Shown piece by piece: positions 3,412-64,000 of a stretch of DNA of 64,000 bases (positions are counted from its first letter, which is position 1; the number at the start of each line of letters is the position of its first letter). The notes beneath the pieces were generated by a model. It saw nothing but the letters and a program-made list of their open reading frames with translations. It did not search any database and had not been told where the DNA came from. The position numbers were made by a program, and so were the translations under genes. The DNA is from Escherichia coli (GTDB lineage: Bacteria; Pseudomonadota; Gammaproteobacteria; Enterobacterales; Enterobacteriaceae), in the NCBI RefSeq assembly GCF_017348835.2, contig NZ_CP071375.1; one strand, 5' to 3'.

Positions 3412-4117
3412 GCGGTTTGCCAGCTTGAGTCTTCAACGCTGGGAAGATGCGGCAAACGGCAAATCGGCATACCAGCCAGCCTATATCCGTCATGCACAGG
3501 CCAATTATGAAAGAGGAGAGGCTTAAGTTCTGGAACCCTGAACGAATAACGAGCACCGGAAAATCACTTCGTATCACTCAGATGCTATTTAACATAATAT
3601 ACATTATGCGCACCAATATAAACCAAGGGAGAATCTAGTCGTTGGCGGTCATGATTGTCCTGCTCATTAACAACGACCAAACCCCATATCTTACTCTTAC
3701 TTAATACCGTATTCCCGGCTTAACCGACCGTGCAACCTCAACACATTGGTTTCAACTGCCGTCACCACGTTCTCTGGAAAATCTGTCGGTAATGAAGTCT
3801 TCACGTTATCCAGTGCTGCCGGAATCATTCTGGCAAAGTCACTCAGGATTTCATGCATCTGCACTTCCGGGAATCTCAGCACCTTTGCTGTCGCCAAAAA
3901 ATGTCGCGGATAAATTTTATCGATTGCCGTTTTTTTGCCTTTGGATGCGTTAAGCCCCATTGCCAGTTTGAGATCGCTGATGTGTATTCCCGCGCCACCC
4001 AATACCGGAAATGCTGAAATGATGTCGTAAAATGGCGTGAGTCGATAACTGCCGCCAGCCTGAATAAATACGGAGAAGTTTTTTGCATGGCCATCCGTTG
4101 CGCCAATCAGTTCGCTG

Positions 4118-4547
4118 CATACCGGTCCGACCCCGTACTGCTCACGCAGCTTATCCAGCAGTGGCATTATTTTTTCCAGAGGCGGTCGAACTCCGCCTTC
4201 GCAAAATAAGCGGAAGCCTGGCGAAGGATATCGTTACTGCGGCGCAGTTCACGATTTTCACGTTCCAGCTCTTTCAGACGCTGACGTTCAGCGGTGGTGA
4301 GTCCACCATCACCACTCCCGGTATCCCGCTCATGCTGGCGAACCCAGACACGCAGAGTCTCCGGCGTACAGCCAATCTTTGGGGCAATGGAACAAATTGC
4401 CGCCCACTGTGAGTCATATTCATCCTGACTTTCCAGAACCATACGAATCGCCCGCTGACGGACTTCGGGGGAAAAACGAGTATTTTTAGTCATCCTGTTT
4501 ACCTCTTTCTCAGGGAGTTTAGTCTCCAGGATTTCCGGGGCGGTTCA
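4118..4547 (-). mobile_element. Truncated IS3-family element (IS629/IS1203-like): terminal repeat, complete orfA, first ~20 codons of orfB
   Basis: Bases 4118..4547 match the full copy at 56514..57823 (same end sequence, ending ggggcggttca); identity stops at 4118 inside orfB. Confidence 0.8.
4167..4493 (-). CDS. IS629-like transposase OrfA
   Basis: 108-aa ORF ([19 protein letters not shown]...), identical to the orfA at 57443..57769. Confidence 0.85.
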
Positions 4548-4841
4548 CAACGCTGTCTCGCCCTATTTCTGACAATAAATCAAACGGTTGTCTGGATTTG
4601 GCATGATAACGTTTAACGATCCGGTCACGTACAATCGGGCTATCGGGTAACAAGTTATCGAAGAAGTTAAATACGGCATCAGAGGTGATATTCCCCCTCT
4701 GCAATGGCAGCGAAAGTGACAACGGTCTGGCATAACGGCTGGCTAACCACTCCGGTGCATACTTAAAGGTGTGCGCGCCGTTGGCTAACTTCGTTAACTC
4801 GCCTACCCGCTGGTTGTTCATCCAAGTGACTAGTTTGGGCA

Positions 4842-5108
4842 TTACCACTCCAGATCTTGCTGTTCTGTTGATTCTGGCGAGGCATTTTTCGTGTCGCATA
4901 GCGTCATTGAGAGTTCAAGCGACTGTAAAATCTTAAAAAATGTCGTGAGCGAGGTATTGTCAGGGTTGTTTTCGAAATTGGAAATCGTCGCCTGCTTAAT
5001 GCCGATTTTTTTCGCCAGCTCGCTCTGCGTCCAGCCATTTTGCTGGCGAACCAGTTTCATTGCATTCGCTAATTGCGTTGGGCTATAGATCTTCTGAAAG
5101 CTCATCAT
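4842..5108 (-). CDS. hipB: HipB antitoxin / transcriptional repressor
   Basis: ORF matches HipB (MMSFQKIYSPTQLANAMKLVRQQNGWTQSELAKKIG...); stop overlaps the hipA start by 1 nt as in the known operon. Confidence 0.9.
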   Translation of the reverse strand: MMSFQKIYSPTQLANAMKLVRQQNGWTQSELAKKIGIKQATISNFENNPDNTSLTTFFKILQSLELSMTLCDTKNASPESTEQQDLEW

Positions 5109-5129
5109 GTCATACGTCCACAGCAAATT

Positions 5130-5243
5130 TATCCGCTTAAGGGGATATTATCAGTTTTATCCTTTAGTGAGGATAAAGTCAATCTGGAAACACATCTTAT
5201 CCGCTCTACGGGATAAACGCTGCGATATCCGCGATCGCGGATA
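5130..5243. promoter_or_regulatory. hipBA operator region: four TATCC-N8-GGATA HipB operators
   Basis: TATCC-N8-GGATA palindromes seen at 5130-5147, 5158-5175, 5198-5215 and 5226-5243, directly upstream of hipB. Confidence 0.8.
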
Positions 5244-5318
5244 AAAGGGAGGCTTTAAAAGCCGTTTGAAGTCGGCAATATTAAGCCGCATGCCATCTCG
5301 ACATGCGGCTTATACGGT

Positions 5319-8300
5319 TTACCAGCTATATTTCACTCCCAGCATGCCCTGAGTATCGCTATAGCCTTTATCACCTAGTTGCACACCGACATTCCCCCAC
5401 AGGCTAAGGTTGTTATTTACTTTCGCCTCAACCCCGGTACGTACTTCACCGAGATTACGCGCACCATCACGGCTTACGGTTTGACCATTCATCTTCACGG
5501 CGTAGACTTCGCTATTGTTGATCCAGTTCGCTTCAATGTAAGGCTGGAACTCACGCTGTTTACCATCGTCACGCTGGTGATGGCTATTCAGGTAGGTTTT
5601 CACCCCAAGTCGCGTTTGCACGTTTCCGTCGCCTTCCGTTTCAATGCGCGTTCCGTCTTTCCGGGTATGGTCAGAATCTTTCACACCCATCCAGGTGATT
5701 TGTACCTGTGGCTGGACGTACCAGGTATTCAGCGTCCCTTCGCTGCCACTAAATGTTCCCGCTTCAAAGGTATACCCACCCTCAACAGAGGCCGTCACAC
5801 CGCGAGAATCATAGTCGTCAGCAGAACGGTTATCGGAACTGACACTGTTATCAAACCAGTTATACAGCACCCAACTGTCAACATAAGCGCCGGTCTTATT
5901 CGCATCGTTCTGATACCAGGTCGCGTACAGCCCAGCGCTGTAACCGCTGATGCGCCCATCCGATTTATAACCCACACGATTACTCTGAGTATTACTGTGC
6001 TGATTGGCGTAGCCTGCCATCACGCCAAGATGCCAGCGATCCTGCGCGTTGCTACTCCACTGCGCCAAATCGCCGCCTAGCTGCAATACATAGCGGTTAG
6101 CCTGAGCATTTAGCTGGCCGTCACCGGTCCTGAAACGTTCGTGTCCCCCGACATGACGCATCCACATACTGCTTGCCGAACCCTGAGAAAGCCGTGAATC
6201 TGTATACTGCGGCTCACCCAGACGGTCGTGTAAGCGATGGCTAAACAGCGAGTTGGCTGCGGCAATGTTGCTGATATAGCTTCCGGCCTCCGGGCGATAA
6301 ACTGATGGGCCTTCCGGATCCACAACAGGGGGATTATTGATGGGATCGGGTGTATCCGCTGGCGTTACGCCGTCCCATTTACTGGTCAGATACCAGTTTT
6401 TCTCGTCATTCCCCTTCCCTTTAGCCAGCGTGTAGACGTAAGCCCCAGCTTCGACAGTTCCGGTGGTCAGCGCGAAGTTACCTGCAGAATTACCGCCAAC
6501 CTCAATGAGTTCAATACCGTTGACCGTTTGCGCACCGACGCCGCCAATGTTATCAACCCGAACGCGAGTGTTCCCTTGGGTATCGCCTTTCACGTTCATC
6601 TTATCGGTGGGTGAATTATCGCCGCCCAGCGTCGCGTTGAACGTTATCAGGCCATTGTTTCCGGTATAGTTGCCGTTAACGGTCAGTACATTCCCCGGTT
6701 TTCCTCCTTCACTGTTCATTTGAACCGTGCCGCCATTCTTCAGGTTGCCGCCGATTGTGGTTTTAGCGACACGCAGTGTCCCCCCAGACATAACGTTCAC
6801 ATCACCTGCAGTGGTGACATTTCCCGACATCACACCGCTGTTATGGATATTAATGTGTTGACTTACCGTATTAATGGCAGAGTCGGAACCGAAAGCAATT
6901 TCCCCCCCCCCACGATATCCGTCGTACCCTGATACGCCGAGGAATCGTTGTTAAGAGTCAGGATCCCGGTACCCAGTTTTGTCAAATCACCGCTACCGCT
7001 GATACTGTGCGTCATCGCCCAGCTACGCTCAGTGGAGATGGTGAGCAGGCCATTATTGATAACGGAAGCATCACCCAGGTTTTTCTGCTCGTTGACGCTG
7101 AGCGCGCTGCCTGTATCAATGTTGAATTGCCCCACAAAGCGGCTATTATCGCCATCCAGCTCTACATCTGTCCTGGCGGTTGCGCTCACGATACCCTTCC
7201 CGCTTATGCTATTACGCAGTTCGCCAGTCACGTTTTTTAGCGTTAACAGACCGTCATTGGCAATATTTCCTCTGCCTAACCCCTGCGTATTATCGAGGCT
7301 GACTTCCGCATTTGGGCTAACGCTGGTTAACGCATTGTAGCGTGCATTAAGCCCCTCAATAGCCAGCGTTCCCCCTGTAACATTCAGGTTTCCGCCACCT
7401 GTCAGTTCACCCTGACTGATCCCACCTTTGGACACCGTGGGAACCGTCCTGAACGCCCACCAATGAATATTCTTTGTTATTAATCAGTCCATTATTGGAA
7501 ATATTGACTTTGCCATTACCGAAATATCCATTATAGAGTCTGCGTACCGTGATGACAGAGTCTTGATCCTGCACATTCAGGGTTCCGACACCGGTGGCAT
7601 TGCCACCGATAATCGTATTTTCAGCCGTAATCAGTCCACCCTCGCGAATAGTCGCCTCCCCAGTTCCTTGATTACCAATTTGAAATTCAATTGAGGAATC
7701 GTTATTTTTCATTAGCCACTCGCCACCCTTTTCAACGACAACCTGGCCATTACTGCCCGCCTGATAGCCTAAAATGGCGACGATTGAACTCGTGACGTAA
7801 CCCTTATCCGTAATATTTAATGAGCCTGTACCGTAACTCCCTATTTCGAATAATTCGGTCGTCAAAACCGAGTCCTCTCCCTCAACATTAACCGTCCCGA
7901 CGCCTGCAGCTTGAGTACCTAATCTTAAATAGCCTCCATCGACGTGACCCTTCTGTTTAATATTCAGCGTCCCCGTTCCGGATTGACCCACATTTAAAGG
8001 CCTTGCATTATTTCCGCTATCATACAATCGCCAGGTGCCACCCAAAACATTAACGGTACCCTCCGAATCCTCATTACCGCCAATGACGCTGGTAGTAATA
8101 GTGGTTAAGGAGGCATTACCGCCAGCCAAAATATTAAGCACTCCAGTGCCATACCAGCCAACCAGGTAGGCATCATAAGCAACATCAGTATCAATATTGG
8201 TAATCTGACCATTATCAACTTCCAGACTCGCACCAGACGCTGAACCGCTTAGTGCCAGCAAAACACCCAGCGTCAATCTACTGAATTTCGTTGTCAGTCC

Positions 8301-55788: not shown

Positions 55789-56513
55789 TTATCTCGTCAC
55801 CTTCCTCAATTGCGCTTCCGCGTATGCTTCTTCCTGCCAGCACTTTGTTACCAGTTTACCAATGACGTCAGCATACCCCTTATACCACTGATAATCGGTC
55901 AGGTCTGGTACCAGCTTCTGGACATGACGTCGTGCCAGCGTGGTCGGTAAACGACTAAACCGGTTTCCATTACAACGCCCACAAATCTTATATACCGGTA
56001 CGCCATGAAACCGGGTTCTTTTTTCATCCAGAACAATCCCTTTACCCTTACACCCTCTGCACGCTGTGCTGACTTCGCCCTTACCATGGCAATGCTGACA
56101 TAGTTCCTTTACCCATTCTTCCTTGATTACAGATTCCCCGCGTCTGTAGTGTTTCACCACTTCGCGCAATACATTATAAAATCCCGTACCTGAACAATGC
56201 TCACAGCGAGCCTTACTTGCCGCAGACCTAGAGTAATCAGCAAAGGCAAAATTCACGAGGTAAGGAATAATCTGTAACCGGATTTCTTCACTCAATTTGT
56301 TCAATGTCGGGTTATCCAGTGCCATCGCGTAATTTAGCAGGCCTTCAATCGCAAACTGAGGGTCCTGAACACCAACTTTTGCCAGAAATAAGGCCAACCC
56401 AAGTGGTGCTTTCGACTGCACCATCCCCTGCGCTGCCATTACATCCGTAATTGTTAAACAACCGGTGCCTGTCGCTGGAGCGTCATCGCTCAATTTTGGA
56501 GATTTTGGGGAGT
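55789..56513 (-). CDS. quuQ: Late-gene antiterminator Q-like protein with four CxxCxGxG zinc motifs; 5' end removed by IS629
   Basis: 234-aa ORF starts at TTG 20 bp from the IS end; frame is open right up to the IS boundary at 56514. Sits upstream of the cold-shock morons and lysis genes. Confidence 0.6.
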
Positions 56514-56555
56514 TGAACCGCCCCGGGTTTCCTGGAGAGTGTTTTATCTGTGAAC

Positions 56556-57443
56556 TCAGGCTGCCAGATCATTATTTCCGATGGAAGCATAATAAGCTTT
56601 TTCTGCTTCTGCCGGAGGAATATGGCCCAGCCTTTCCAGCAATCGTCGATTGTTATACCAGTCCACCCACGTTAGTGTGGCCAGTTCCACTTCTGTCCGG
56701 TTTTTCCAGCTCTTACGGTGTATTACCTCCGCTTTGTAAAGACCATTGATGCTCTCAGCCATCGCGTTGTCATACGAGTCGCCAGTACTCCCTGTTGATG
56801 CCAGTAATCCGGCTTCCTTAAGCCGCTGCGTGTAGGCCAGCGATACATACTGAGAACCTTTATCACTGTGATGGATTGTGCCGGACGGCCGACGGGCCCA
56901 CAACGCCTGCTCCAGTGCATCCAGCACGAATGTTGTTTCCATGGATGATGAGACCTGCCATCCCACGATGTATCCGGCGAACACATCAATGATGAACGCC
57001 ACATAAACGAAGCCCTGCCATGTGCTTACCCAGGTAAAATCAGCCACCCACAACTGGTCTGGACGTTCTGCCACGAACTGACGGTTTACGCGGTCGCATG
57101 CGGCAACGGCTTTCCGGCTGACGGTAGTGCGGACCTTTTTACCCCGGAGAACACCGGCAAGTCCCATAACTGCCATGAGACGTGCCACAGTGCATCTGGC
57201 CACTCTGATACCTTCCCGTAACAACTGACGCCAGACTTTACGCACACCGTATACCTGGTGATTTTCATCGTATACGCGCTGTATCTCTTTCTTCAGCCAG
57301 TCATCGTGCTGCGCACGGGCACTGCGTTTATCCGGATGATGTCGCTGTTGCTGACAATGGTAATACGTTGACGGGGCAATATGCAGTTCGCTGCATACCG
57401 GTCCGACCCCGTACTGCTCACGCAGCTTATCCAGCAGTGGCAT
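56556..57443 (-). CDS. IS629-like transposase OrfB (DDE); expected to be made as an OrfAB fusion by -1 frameshift
   Basis: 295-aa ORF; A-rich slippery stretch (GGAAAAAATAATG) at the orfA/orfB overlap. Confidence 0.9.
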   Translation of the reverse strand: MPLLDKLREQYGVGPVCSELHIAPSTYYHCQQQRHHPDKRSARAQHDDWLKKEIQRVYDENHQVYGVRKVWRQLLREGIRVARCTVARLMAVMGLAGVLRGKKVRTTVSRKAVAACDRVNRQFVAERPDQLWVADFTWVSTWQGFVYVAFIIDVFAGYIVGWQVSSSMETTFVLDALEQALWARRPSGTIHHSDKGSQYVSLAYTQRLKEAGLLASTGSTGDSYDNAMAESINGLYKAEVIHRKSWKNRTEVELATLTWVDWYNNRRLLERLGHIPPAEAEKAYYASIGNNDLAA

Positions 57444-57769
57444 TATTTTTTCCAGAGGCGGTCGAACTCCGCCTTCGCAAAATAAGCGGAAGCCTGGCGA
57501 AGGATATCGTTACTGCGGCGCAGTTCACGATTTTCACGTTCCAGCTCTTTCAGACGCTGACGTTCAGCGGTGGTGAGTCCACCATCACCACTCCCGGTAT
57601 CCCGCTCATGCTGGCGAACCCAGACACGCAGAGTCTCCGGCGTACAGCCAATCTTTGGGGCAATGGAACAAATTGCCGCCCACTGTGAGTCATATTCATC
57701 CTGACTTTCCAGAACCATACGAATCGCCCGCTGACGGACTTCGGGGGAAAAACGAGTATTTTTAGTCAT
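57443..57769 (-). CDS. IS629-like transposase OrfA
   Basis: 108-aa ORF identical to 4167..4493. Confidence 0.9.
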
Positions 57770-57874
57770 CCTGTTTACCTCTTTCTCAGGGAGTTTAGTC
57801 TCCAGGATTTCCGGGGCGGTTCATTAAAGATTTTTTTGTGCATGCCGATAGTGCTTTTTTAAAAGGAGAAATCT

Positions 57875-58207
57875 ATGTCTGTCACAATTCAGGGAAATAC
57901 CTCAACCGTTATTTCAAACAACTCCGCCCCGGAAGGAACATCAGAAATAGCCAAAATCACAAGACAAATTCAGGTGCTGACTGAAAAGCTTGGGAAAATC
58001 TCATCGGAAGAGGGGATGACGACACAGCAGAAAAAAGAAATGGCTGCATTGGTACAGAAGCAAATTGAAAGCCTCAGGGCTCAACTGGAGCAGTTGTTAA
58101 GGCAGCAGGCAGAGAAAAAGAATGAAGACGCGACAGTTCAGCCTGATAAAAAAGAAGAGAAAAAAGACGATACAAATACCGCTGGCACCATTGATATTTA
58201 CGTCTAA
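57875..58207 (+). CDS. flxA: Prophage protein FlxA
   Basis: 110-aa ORF MSVTIQGNTSTVISNNSAPEGTSEIAKITRQIQVLTEKLG... with ribosome-binding site. Confidence 0.7.
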   Translation: MSVTIQGNTSTVISNNSAPEGTSEIAKITRQIQVLTEKLGKISSEEGMTTQQKKEMAALVQKQIESLRAQLEQLLRQQAEKKNEDATVQPDKKEEKKDDTNTAGTIDIYV

Positions 58208-58221
58208 GTGACAGCCGTATT

Positions 58222-58245
58222 GTGGCCCTCATCGGGCCACTTTTC
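58222..58245 (+). terminator. Intrinsic terminator after flxA
   Basis: GTGGCCC-tcatc-GGGCCAC-ttttc. Confidence 0.75.
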
Positions 58246-58643
58246 GCCATCAGCCTTTTCTTTAAAGACATATTATCTTTGTATCATTTCTGATAGTTAA
58301 CATTACAAGATATAAGTAATGGACGCACTCCCAATTAGTCTATTTAAATCGCCACGAGTTTAACTGACAACCCATGATCAATTATGAATTGCAACTATTT
58401 CTGTAGTCACTTTTGTGGGGACAGTCCACAAAACTGCCAACTTCCGCTTCTTGCTCTTAGCGGACATTAGCATAGGCTATTTACCATAACGCCTCATTAC
58501 GCGCACCGCCCAGACTGACTCAGCGCGTTTCTGGCATATCCCCGGTAAAACAAGTAACAAACCACCCGAAAATGAACACCAGAAACGCGACTTAAGAATC
58601 TACCCTATGAATGGATATGCACTCAACCGAATCGATCTTGGTT

Positions 58644-59985
58644 TCAATCTTTTTTATCGGGATCAGGCTTCTTTTTAGGTAACTTCGGGGGCTTAACTTG
58701 CTGATGACTTTGCGTTCGGCGCGTAAGCCAGGGATGGTCAGCTTTAGGTTTAACATAGTATTTTGAGCGTAAATCAATACGGGCATTATCCACTCGTTCA
58801 TGGACACTCTTTTCATCATCCAGTGGTATAGGCTCCGGGCCATCAACATACTTTTCCCAGCCCAGCGCTTTCCCGTCATACAGAACGTTAATTTCACCGT
58901 CAAAGTTCTCGCATACAGTAACAACCGAATGCCTAAGTCGATATCCCCGGCCCTCACTGCGTACCTGAAACGCACTGCTTTTGTACTGGAAAGTGAGATT
59001 TTTAGACAGAACGCGCTTCGCCTGTAGGCTGAAGATATAACCCAGTTCCTCTTCAGAATGGTGCACATCAAGATGAGCATTATCAGTAGTACGAGGCGAC
59101 GTAGCGAACCGGTTGTTATAGGCTTCAATAAAGGTCGGCAACCATGCATTTGCTGTTTCAATATCACTGATATTCTGAAGCCGCATTTCTTTGACCAGCC
59201 TGTCCTGTAGTGTCTGATTGGCGCGCTCTACCCGCCCTTTTGCCTGCGGGCTGTTGGCATGGATTGGCTCGATGCCCAGTGTCTTTATCGCACGAGTGAA
59301 CTGGGTCAGCTCACCTTCCCGCTCTGGGTTATTTACCCTGAATATACTGTGTCTATCAGAGTAGAGAGCGAGCGGTACGCCATGATCATTAAGGTAACCC
59401 CGGAGGGTTTCCATGTAAGCCCGGGTTGTTTCAGCAGGCACAAAACGCAACGCCATCAACGCACTGGTGGCATCATCAATGAAAACGATCAGTGTACATC
59501 TGGGGCCTCGATTTTCAAACCAGTCATGAGGTGAGCCATCAATCTGGATCAGTTCACCGTAAGATGGTCGTCGCATGCGGCGTTGATATATACGGGCAAT
59601 TTTACGACGGCGTTCACGCCATACCCCCCTCTTCTATCATCCACTTTCTGAGAGTTTCAACGGATAAAGATAAACCGTGTATCTCGCGCAATTTTTCGCA
59701 CGCAAACGTAGGTCCAAAATCAGCGTAACGGCCTTTGAGGAGTGAAATTACTGTTGCTCTGAATTCAGTAGAAAAGGAATTATTAGGACGCTTTCCACGT
59801 CGGTGGGAAACCAGACCAGAAGGCCCTTCATTTCTATACCGTTGCACCAGACGTTTAACCTGCCGAATAGAAATGCCAATGCGTGCCGCAGCTTGTTCCT
59901 GAGTAATATGTCGATTAATTGACTCCTGAATAATCTGAAGTCGGTGGAGTTCCTTATGACTCATCGTAACAGTTTCTTTGGTCAT
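58644..59985 (-). pseudogene. HTH + DDE (integrase-core) transposase split into two frames (IS481/ISNCY-like)
   Basis: N-terminal HTH ORF 59614..59985 and DDE ORF 58644..59576 are in different frames; a C7 run sits at the junction (59625-59631). Confidence 0.6.
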
Positions 59986-60319
59986 GAAAAATCCCCCAGA
60001 GAATTGTCTGGGGACATTTTAGAATGGTTCAAAGGGGACATTACAGCTTGGTGTTAACAATAGCCTGCTTCTCCTTGCCTTTCGGCACGTAAGAGGCTAA
60101 CCTACATGTGTCTGGCATGAAATTGGCCTCAGATTAATGTTAAGCGTCTTGCAGGACGCGTAATGTTAACTGGGGCTTTTCTCTACCTGCCGTTGGTGTT
60201 CGTGCCCGAGGCAGATAGCCTCAAGCACCCGCAGTCATTCTACTTAACTAAGATTTCCCCGCAAACCGTTTTTGTCCAGCACAGTAAATATCCAACTAAA
60301 CCAATGGAGTTCGCTGTAT

Positions 60320-60499
60320 TTACCGCCAGTATTCAATGCACATGACCGCCATGAACACCCCTAAAAAAAGGGCATTTATATATCCAAATATTAATATCAA
60401 AACATCAACTTTTTCCATATACCTTGCTGTGAAGATGATGGGCATACATGATGCGAACAACCAGAACGCAACAAACAAAAACTGCAATGCGTTTTTCAT
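60320..60499 (-). CDS. Hypothetical small membrane protein (59 aa, two predicted TM helices)
   Basis: ATG at 60499 four nt after a perfect AGGAGG; MKNALQFLFVAFWLFASCMPIIFTARYMEKVDVLILIFGYINALFLGVFMAVMCIEYWR. Confidence 0.5.
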   Translation of the reverse strand: MKNALQFLFVAFWLFASCMPIIFTARYMEKVDVLILIFGYINALFLGVFMAVMCIEYWR

Positions 60500-61651
60500 T
60501 ATTCCTCCTACAATCAATGTGCAATTACATTTAAACACACCTCAATTTGGCCGGACATATAAATATCTAAACCAGAAAAAATCACTTACATAGCGTTACA
60601 AACTCTTTAGTCTAAAGGTTCATCGTAAAACATTCCCCATACTTATCAGTCCGTTCCGCGCCAGGTAGCTCATTGCCTTATCTGGCAACCTGTAATCAGG
60701 TTTCCGCTTTTTCAGTTGGCTGGTCGTTTAACCGACATAGTTAACCCATTAATCTAGTTGCCGGATGTTGGTGGATTTTCGCGTTTTAGTTGTTCATAAA
60801 AGTGCACAGCTTTAACCAATTCTTCTGATGTAACCGGGACTGGTGAGGCAGTGAATAAGGCCTGAATTTGATAGTTCGGCCTGTCGTTACAATCCTCTTT
60901 TTTCGGTACATATTTCCAGTCACCAGACCACTACTTCCCCTGAAAGTCCGTAACGCCTTTTTTCACGTAGCGATATCGCCATGTCACTGGTTTTGCTTGC
61001 CCCGCCGTTTCATGCCCTTCCTGATAATTAATCTCGCTCATTCATCGCCCCACTCATCACAATATGCTTCGACCGGAGTTTTTCCCGCTTCATAGTCATC
61101 ACGCTAGGATTCGACATCAGCAGCACTTCCACCGCGTAACTCACCATAGTCCATTAATAGTTCATCCCGCTCTTCAAAACTGATGTTATATTTAGCTGAA
61201 CAAAAATCAGCCACTTTGTTCTTCCTCATCGTCTTTTATTTCGTGGTATGAGTAATTGCAGTAGTTAAAGAAAATTTCTTATGCTCCGTCATGAATTTCA
61301 TCAGGTGTTGCGTCATCGTCCACTTCGAATACATCCTCAAAATCTCCACCAGCTATTCCCGTTTCAATAATAATTTTGAACTTTCGCATTTCACTACCGC
61401 CCTTTCGGGCGGCCTCCTGATGTTCTGAGGGTGCAGAAATCCATCCGGTTAAGGATTAAGTTTTATTTACAGAACTGAATTTAATTATTCAGATATACGT
61501 ATCTGTAACCTTACGAATCTACTCACTGGATGCCTCTTTCATAAAAATAATCCAGTGGGTTTTATCGTTTTTTCCCTGTTCGTTGACAGATAACAGGCTT
61601 TCTATCTGTCAGTGCCAGAATCTGGCTTACCGGTATTTGCGTTTCATTCCA

Positions 61652-62008
61652 TTAAAAAATCAGAACGCCGTGCGGCCTCAACACCCGAAAAGCTTCTTTA
61701 AATCTCTGTCGCAAATCATCACGCCAGGCATCTTTATTCAGCCGTCCATATTTCTTTCCCATCCAGGCGTTATCACCAACACGCTCAAGATGCGGAGGGT
61801 CTAATACAACCATCGAAAAAGATGCGTCTGCAAATGATAATGCACGAAAATCTGCGATAATGTCAGGGCTGATAATCAAGCGTCTCCCATTGCGTAATGT
61901 GTATCCTTCTTTTCTGATATCGCTAAATATCGCCCGTTCGTCAGACTTATCGAACCAGAACATGCGGCTGCCACAGCACATATCAAGAATGGTTGCCGGT
62001 GCACTCAC
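61652..62008 (-). pseudogene. DNA methyltransferase fragment (motif I, DPPH motif IV; C-terminus missing)
   Basis: 118-aa ORF from GTG: DMCCGSRMF, VVLDPPHL, RVLRPHGVLIF, then stops abruptly. Confidence 0.5.
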
Positions 62009-62535
62009 TGCGCCACGTCCTGAAAATTACCCTGATAGAAAGCCAGTATGCGCTGCATAACTTCGCTCTTCCGGCACTCGCGACAGATTATGTTTAGGCG
62101 ACTGTCGTAGCGACGTATTTCTCCGTCAGGTGATGACCAGATAAGGTCCGGATCAACCACAGCAGGTTTCTTCACCTTTGCCCTCGAGAGTTTTTTGCGG
62201 GCGTTTTGCCAGTCCTTACGCGCCTGTTCAGAGGGGAATAACCCGTATCTGATATCCCAAAAAATGAAACCGCACCGGAAGCTGAACCATCTGTAGAGCG
62301 TGAGGGGCCGTTCTATTTCCTCTTCGCAGATAAGGACGGAGAAAAATACGGTCGCGCAAACAAACTTTCTGGTCTGGATAAGGCACTGGCTGCTGGCGCC
62401 ACTGAAATCACAAAAGAAGAATATTTTGCCCGAAAAAATGGCACATACACGGGCTTACCGCAAAATGTAGATACCGCTGAAGATTCAGAACAACCAGAGC
62501 CGATAAAAGTTACCGCTGACGAAGTAAACAAAATT

Positions 62536-63615
62536 ATGCAGGCAGCCAATATCAGCCAGCCTGACGCCGATAAGTTGCTTGCTGCATCACGTGGTGAATT
62601 TGTTGAAGGGATTAGTGACCCGAATGATCCGAAATGGGTTAAGGGGATCCAGACCCGCGATTCTGTGAACCAGAACCAGCATGAATCGGAACGGAACTAC
62701 CAAAAAGCGGAACAAAACAGCCCAAATGCGTTACAAAACGAGCCAGAAACGAAACAGCCTGAATCAGTGGCGCAACAGGAAGTGGAAAAAGTCTGCACCG
62801 CCTGCGGTCAGACCGGCGGCGGCAACTGCCCTGATTGTGGCGCGGTGATGGGCGACGCAACATACCAAGAAACATTCGATGAAGAGTATCAGGTTGAAGT
62901 TCAGGAAGATGATCCGGAGGAAATGGAAGGCGCTGAACATCCACACAAGGAGAACGCTGGCGGCAATCAGCATCACGATAGCGATAATGAAACTGGCGAG
63001 ACGGCAGATCACTCAATTAAGGTGAACGGTCATCACGAAATCACATCCACCAGCAGGACGTGTGACCATCTAATGATCGACCTTGAAACCATGGGAAAAA
63101 ATCCTGATGCCCCGATCATCTCAATAGGTGCAATATTTTTCGATCCGCAAACCGGAGATATGGGACCGGAATTTAGTAAGACTATCGATCTGGAAACTGC
63201 TGGCGGAGTCATTGATCGGGACACCATTAAATGGTGGCTTAAGCAATCACGCGAAGCGCAATCGGCCATTATGACCGATGAAATCCCGTTAGATGATGCA
63301 CTGTTACAATTGCGGGAATTTATCGACGAAAACTCCGGTGAATTTTTTGTTCAGGTTTGGGGAAATGGAGCCAACTTCGACAACACGATTTTGCGCCGTT
63401 CATACGAACGGCAGGGGATCCCCTGCCCGTGGCGTTACTACAACGATCGCGATGTACGCACAATCGTTGAGCTGGGGAAAGCCATAGACTTCGATGCCAG
63501 AACGGCTATTCCATTCGAAGGTGAGCGCCATAATGCACTTGATGACGCCCGTTACCAGGCAAAATACGTTTCAGTTATCTGGCAAAAACTGATCCCGAGT
63601 CAGGCTGATTCTTAA
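62536..63615 (+). CDS. Prophage protein with zinc ribbon and C-terminal DEDD (DnaQ-like) 3'-5' exonuclease domain
   Basis: 359-aa [19 protein letters not shown] zinc ribbon; exonuclease motifs [25 protein letters not shown]. The frame is open upstream to 62242 without a start codon. Confidence 0.7.
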
Positions 63616-63687
63616 TGTTCAACTGTCGCCGGTTGTGACTGGTATTCTGCAACCGGCGCTCGTCTGATGTAAGAGATAAAGAAATCG

Positions 63688-63939
63688 ATGAGCGAAGTAA
63701 TCATGATTGTCTCTCCCGGCAAATGGGTATCCGAAGAGCAGTTAATTGCGCTGAAAGGAATAAAAAAAGGTACGTTAAAAAAGGCCCGGGAAAAATCGTT
63801 TATGGAAGGAAGGGAATATAAGCATGTCGCTCATGACGGTATGCCATGGGATAACAGTCCATGCTTTTACAACCTGGAAGAAATTGATCGCTGGATTGAG
63901 CGCCAGGCATCAGCAAGACCAAGACGTCATCTTACTTGA
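63688..63939 (+). CDS. Excisionase-like small DNA-binding protein
   Basis: 83-aa basic ORF immediately upstream of the integrase start. Confidence 0.5.
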   Translation: MSEVIMIVSPGKWVSEEQLIALKGIKKGTLKKAREKSFMEGREYKHVAHDGMPWDNSPCFYNLEEIDRWIERQASARPRRHLT

Positions 63940-63974
63940 CTAAAAGCCACACTAACTAATGAGAGAAGTTGAAA

Positions 63975-64000
63975 TGAAATATCCGACAGGCGTGGAAAAC
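63975..64000 (+). CDS. Start of a tyrosine integrase gene (IntR-like N-terminus MKYPTGVEN...), truncated by window end
   Basis: ATG at 63975 followed by MKYPTGVEN, resembling the N-terminus of Rac-type integrases; only 9 codons are in the window. Confidence 0.4.

Follow-up and report, generated by a model that had tools for sequence, protein, structure and literature searches.

The window, the 64,000-nucleotide stretch of Escherichia coli DNA analyzed here, carries at its right-hand end a Qin-like cryptic prophage located beside rspB. On the minus strand are a SAM-dependent methyltransferase gene with a 118-aa ORF (61652-62008) and, at 62005-62247, a 3′ fragment comprising the last 81 of the 140 codons of a DUF977/Ren-like (LygF) gene, whose 5′ end was lost at a junction described below. 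On the plus strand, a TAA stop codon at 62239-62241 is followed by the same frame left open until the stop at 63613-63615, and this stretch contains a 359-aa exonuclease ORF (62536-63615). Further to the right are an intact excisionase gene (63688-63939, plus strand), found as an ORF and annotated as excisionase in strains PE164 and F2_81 and in phages, and the start of an integrase gene (63975-64000, plus strand), which runs past the end of the window with rspB beyond, on the Qin attachment side.

None of the 98 codons between 62242 and 62535 is ATG, GTG or TTG. Under the rule used to list ORFs, the start is the first of these three codons following a stop, and the listed ORF accordingly begins with the ATG at 62536. 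The initial annotation had described a frame open from 62242 to 62536 without an in-frame start and with a TAA at 62239-62241, which the sequence and the ORF listing confirm. It had also judged the translation upstream of 62536 to be protein-like. This translation corresponds to residues 368-464 of the 823-aa exonuclease of Escherichia phage PhiR42_1, the first codon excepted, as it was created by the junction; the start-less stretch is therefore real coding sequence. The 359-aa ORF is a mechanical product of the listing that begins at Met465 of the full-length protein, codon 465 being an internal ATG of the intact gene. The intact PhiR42_1 gene is also devoid of ATG, GTG and TTG from codon 364 to codon 465. 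The lack of starts is thus inherent to the gene and is uninformative on truncation.

Megablast comparison of 61600-63700 with phage genomes revealed matches of 99.2-99.4% to Escherichia phages HannyBb, Tritos and PhiR42_1, every one of which starts at 62245. In all three the gene is a 2,472-bp CDS encoding 823 aa, labelled 'exonuclease' or 'exodeoxyribonuclease VIII', and excisionase and integrase genes come after it, as in the window. Positions 62245-63615 of the window match positions 6001-7371 of the compared phage sequences (L002, from PhiR42_1, and L001), inside a CDS at 4900-7371. Since the match enters the CDS after 1,101 nt (that is, from nt 1,102), the window retains codons 368-823 of the 823-aa gene, with the stop, at approximately 99.3% DNA identity. 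Its translation differs from the PhiR42_1 protein by five substitutions and the junction-created first codon and is otherwise identical. The window and the three phages share this DNA, the C-terminal Rv2179c-like domain and the downstream xis-int pair, whereas codons 1-367, the native start and the GAGG ribosome-binding site are absent from the window.

The longer ancestral gene that had been postulated in the initial annotation is therefore represented by the 823-aa gene of PhiR42_1, HannyBb and Tritos. An alignment to homologues had been suggested there to see whether full-length proteins extend across the TAA; homologues of 813-823 aa (PhiR42_1, HannyBb, vB_EcoS-640R1) do span that position and the breakpoint. 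Near-identity to vB_EcoS-640R1 and its relatives begins only at window position 62504, and this phage was considered as a homologue starting near 62536. It was ruled out, as the start of its 813-aa CDS lies 1.3 kb before the point where the match begins, the 5′ half of the gene being more diverged. No homologue starting at the equivalent of 62536 was found among the phage relatives compared.

The retained part of the gene encodes an intact Rv2179c-like DEDDh 3′-5′ exonuclease domain at 63067-63582 (plus strand; residues 276-447 of the frame from 62242). Its match to Pfam PF16473 (E 9.8e-68; 227.8 bits against a cut-off of 27) covers profile positions 2-177 of 177, so the exonuclease domain named in the initial annotation is present at full length. 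The DEDDh motifs DxE, second D and H-x4-D were all located in the translation, and their residues are predicted to be catalytic, as in DEDDh nucleases generally. The amino acid sequence of the domain is identical to that in PhiR42_1. As an intact domain with the same sequence as in the functional phage, it shows no sign of decay of its own, which counts against reading the remnant as a pseudogene.

A Pfam scan of the 823-aa protein returned Rv2179c-like and RNase_T matches alone and no RecE-type C-terminal nuclease domain. Similarity to recE is limited to the central linker, where window positions 62596-62999 are approximately 85% identical in DNA sequence to about codons 482-609 of the 1,048-codon recE of Rac-SA53. 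The same linker holds a CxxC...CxxC motif. RecE (exodeoxyribonuclease VIII of the Rac prophage) resembles the gene in the window in being a large nuclease of the early-left operon with a long non-catalytic N-terminal part. However, its catalytic domain is a 5′-3′ PD-(D/E)XK nuclease, whereas here it is an Rv2179c-like DEDDh 3′-5′ exonuclease. Because the catalytic domains differ, the label 'exodeoxyribonuclease VIII' in phage records is a naming carry-over, and the relation between the exonuclease gene and recE is mosaic, which probably explains the presence of that label on DEDDh proteins.

Homology to the exonuclease gene ends at 62245, four bases downstream of the TAA. Window positions 61478-62247 instead correspond, at 99.1% identity, to L002:1-770 of PhiR42_1, where the methyltransferase gene and the 3′ portion of the DUF977 gene lie on the minus strand. 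The 118-aa ORF of the window gives weak matches to Pfam Methyltransf_11/25 and is approximately 99% identical to L002:175-531, which is annotated as a methyltransferase and lies downstream of the DUF977 gene on the minus strand. The intact DUF977 gene (L002:528-950) matches Pfam DUF977 with an E value of 5e-29 and is labelled LygF or 'Ren-like exclusion protein' in phages; in PE164 and F2_81 RefSeq describes the fragment as 'DUF977 family protein, missing N-terminus'. In the methyltransferase region as a whole (61519-62008, minus strand), the window has an intact 118-aa ORF, corresponding to the VG48B2 protein WP_001310834.1. For the identical region of PE164 and F2_81, RefSeq records 'frameshifted; internal stop' over a longer span. 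Either this mismatch is an annotation inconsistency or the ORF is the remnant of a longer methyltransferase.

An intact relative has its early-left genes (ydfA, ydfB, ydfC, dicF, dicB, ydfD, the exonuclease gene, xis and int) oriented rightward, along what is the plus strand of the window, and its early-right genes (cro/dicC, cII, O, DUF977/Ren-like and methyltransferase) oriented leftward, along the minus strand, with the cI/dicA immunity region at the point of divergence. The DUF977 and methyltransferase genes of the intact phage are thus oriented oppositely to the exonuclease gene, lie approximately 5.2 kb from the sequence that they adjoin in the window, on the other side of the immunity and replication region, and are separated from the gene by O, cII, cro, cI and the small early-left genes. 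What precedes the exonuclease remnant in the window derives from elsewhere in the same element and not from an adjoining part of it.

Relative to PhiR42_1, 5,233 bp are missing, with the window from 62245 onward matching L002 from 6001 onward. We are confident that the feature is a deletion junction in the Qin-like cryptic prophage, which left a 5′-truncated exonuclease pseudogene in the course of ordinary decay. The DNA-level comparisons were decisive for this verdict. The deletion took out the control region of the prophage in full: O, cII, cro, cI and the small early-left genes were lost, together with the first 59 codons of the DUF977 gene and codons 1-367 of the exonuclease gene, and two truncated genes were left head to head. 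The exonuclease frame on the plus strand therefore runs open to the junction and one codon into the antisense of DUF977 before meeting a TAA that is there by chance.

Comparison with strain VG48B2 (L004) suggested how the junction could have formed. The junction at 62245-62249 is a GTATC microhomology common to both flanks when this strain is the reference: the left flank matches VG48B2 up to 62249 and the right flank matches it from 62245. Against PhiR42_1, the flanks share GTA alone (62245-62247). The VG48B2 allele, also present in ML35, shares with the window its left flank, its chromosomal context and its head-to-head fusion of DUF977 and exonuclease sequence. It differs in that the DUF977 fragment meets the exonuclease gene 613 bp further upstream, so that this allele keeps 613 bp more of the gene (from approximately codon 164), and in its junction sequence, which is GTATCCGGAG as compared with GTATCTGAT in the window. 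In the intact phage the parental sites of the VG48B2 junction are GTAGCCGGAG in the DUF977 gene and GTATCCGGAG in the exonuclease gene, a 9/10 microhomology with its copies 4,620 bp apart. Exactly 613 bp are gone from the window relative to VG48B2, between GTATC copies at L004:8200-8204 and L004:8813-8817, and 4,620 and 613 bp add up to 5,233 bp. Apart from this gap and small indels near 59907-59924, window positions 57823-64000 are collinear with VG48B2 at approximately 99.1-99.8% identity, with the ISNCY remnant and the upstream pseudogenes common to both.

Among 5,426 complete E. coli genomes, over which all genome counts were taken, the VG48B2-type junction is present in 91 (VG48B2 and ML35 among them). 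The exact window junction occurs in only two, PE164 (pig, China) and F2_81 (pig, Australia), with 100% identity over 400 bp. The 91 carriers of the VG48B2-type junction (GTATCCGGAG, L004:8200-8209) come from humans, pigs, poultry, wild animals and the environment. In about half of those listed, a 'hypothetical protein' rather than an exonuclease fragment adjoins the junction.

Two nested microhomology deletions are most likely, this being the most economical history, with the order of the two deduced from the comparison. In the first step, 4,620 bp would have been deleted between the imperfect 10-bp repeats GTAGCCGGAG and GTATCCGGAG; in the second, a further 613 bp would have been lost between two GTATC copies, one of them inside the junction left by the first. 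Microhomology-mediated slippage or illegitimate recombination may have been responsible.

A single 5,233-bp deletion of an intact Qin-like prophage via the 3-bp GTA, independent of the allele found in 91 genomes, is compatible with the junction and would yield the same sequence. We nevertheless regard it as unlikely. The left breakpoint of such a deletion would have to fall at exactly the same base as in the common VG48B2-type allele, and possession of the same upstream ISNCY remnant and pseudogenes would need either chance sharing or later recombination. The nested deletions, on the other hand, require just one further event of 613 bp at a longer, 5-bp, microhomology.

The region to the left of the junction contains IS sequences. 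The ISNCY (ISEsa1-like) transposase remnant occupies 58644-59985 on the minus strand as two ORFs, a 123-aa HTH part and a 310-aa catalytic part; it is frameshifted or incomplete in the annotation of PE164, F2_81 and VG48B2 and is common to all deletion-allele carriers examined. Directly after the ydfT (Q antiterminator) gene there is a 1.3-kb IS3-family element (56513-57823), where ydfU, rem, hokD, relE, relB and ydfV are absent as compared with VG48B2 and, for most of these genes, with K-12. PE164 has the same element inverted, and another 1.3 kb, corresponding to window 57823-59107 with flxA, ydfW and part of the ISNCY remnant, is missing from it. The pattern points to deletion and inversion mediated by the IS. 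A 441-bp stretch at 4108-4548 is identical to one end of the IS3-family element.

We then considered the expression of the remnant. The initial annotation had allowed that the exonuclease domain may still be expressed from the internal ATG, a proposal for which we found no support in either a Shine-Dalgarno sequence or an upstream promoter-like site. Anti-Shine-Dalgarno pairing at the ATG at 62536 amounts to -0.6 kcal/mol, as compared with -6.3 kcal/mol at the native start; it is weaker than at 58% of ATG triplets on the plus strand of the window and thus below the window median. A simple consensus scan detected no promoter-like site on the plus strand between 61862 and 62536, with hits overall at chance level. 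Both truncated genes have lost their native 5′ ends, and the cI/cro region is deleted. In lambda-like phages the early promoters lie in the cI/cro region, and by analogy the early promoters of the prophage would have been lost along with it. The remnant lacks a start codon at its 5′ end (62242-62535), a ribosome-binding site for the internal ATG and a promoter match upstream, and is thus a pseudogene; RefSeq treats it as such in PE164 and F2_81 ('incomplete; missing N-terminus'). We infer that it is not expressed, although read-through or a non-consensus promoter is possible. A terminator-like hairpin match at 62293-62316 (plus strand) lies within the start-less part of the remnant; four such matches were found in the region against 3.0 expected, and this one is probably meaningless.

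The 359-aa ORF could alternatively be a functional, domesticated short exonuclease made from the internal ATG at 62536. The ORF is uninterrupted, the Rv2179c-like domain is complete and without amino acid changes, and the nuclease activity of RecE tolerates loss of the N-terminal half of that protein, all of which would agree with such a role. Against it stand the missing Shine-Dalgarno sequence and promoter-like site, the occurrence of the allele in only 2 of 5,426 genomes, the pseudogene status given by RefSeq, and the disruption of the same remnant by IS elements in sister lineages. Decay has taken another course there, as in ML35, where insertions of IS600 and IS30 have further split the remnant. 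Of the differences from VG48B2, 5 are non-synonymous and 3 synonymous, a ratio that is compatible with relaxed constraint, the numbers being small; the 8-11 differences from relatives are too few to reveal selection. Domestication is therefore improbable. In a fuller form of this proposal, read-through or a non-consensus promoter would provide the transcript, translation would begin at the internal ATG, and a pig-associated lineage would have retained the ORF as a stand-alone 3′-5′ exonuclease beneficial to the host; this is likewise improbable. Searches of the literature on ydfE with Qin and on Rv2179c-like phage exonucleases yielded, by title or abstract, nothing on the function of the gene.

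The initial annotation suggested that a nonsense mutation had cut the gene, and the TAA would then be a point mutation in a gene continuous across 62239-62241. In favour of this, the frame is open to either side of the TAA, and the ancestral gene was indeed longer. However, the frame before the TAA has just 34 open codons, bounded by another TAA at 62134-62136, and these codons are antisense to the DUF977 gene and 99% identical to the copy of the intact phage, in which the TAA is already there. Being on the antisense strand of that gene, they are open by chance. The TAA context, GGGGAATAACCCGTA, is unchanged in the DUF977 region of the intact phage, whereas intact phages have ...GTGGAAACTGAGGTATCTG at the corresponding point of their exonuclease gene, with GAAACTGAG in the intact gene where the window has GGGAATAAC. 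No sense codon of the exonuclease gene has been replaced by the stop, and homology does not continue upstream of it. The intact phage has this TAA in the same position, so it did not arise by mutation. The alignment rules out the nonsense reading, to which we attach a negligible probability. The TAA is a stop that occurs by chance on the strand antisense to the DUF977 fragment, placed beside the exonuclease remnant by the 5,233-bp deletion, and not a mutated exonuclease codon.

An assembly or sequencing artefact, for which no evidence was found, is extremely unlikely, because the identical junction is carried by two independently sequenced genomes, PE164 and F2_81, from different continents, and the window is a third near-identical sequence that is structurally distinct, its IS arrangement differing from that of PE164.

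The deletion junction can also be viewed against the Qin prophage of K-12. K-12 MG1655 positions 1647357-1650844 match PhiR42_1 L002:2179-5666 at 99.9%, including the first 767 nt of the exonuclease gene, and PhiR42_1 is an essentially intact Qin. The ydfE pseudogene of MG1655 (b1577) belongs to the same gene, the same prophage family and the same site beside rspB, and it is a truncated remnant too. It consists of those first 767 nt, the 3′ exonuclease domain, xis and part of intQ having been lost at an IS2E remnant. K-12 thus retains the 5′ end and the dicA/dicC immunity region, whereas the window retains the 3′ end, xis and int and has lost the 5′ end and the immunity region, probably by microhomology deletions. 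K-12 and the window therefore carry complementary remnants of the same gene at the Qin locus. Alignment with K-12 places dicC, dicA, ydfA, ydfB, ydfC, dicF, dicB and ydfD in the deleted interval. The joint loss of the repressor gene and of the toxic early-left genes under its control (dicB, dicF and ydfD) would make the deletion tolerable.

Overall, 62536-63615 is best annotated as a 5′-truncated pseudogene and not as an intact 359-aa exonuclease gene or a nonsense mutant. RefSeq already gives it pseudogene status in PE164 and F2_81, and the significance of the finding beyond correct annotation is small. The locus provides a clean example of stepwise prophage decay, and its two nested junctions, carried by 91 and 2 of 5,426 genomes, may serve as lineage markers.
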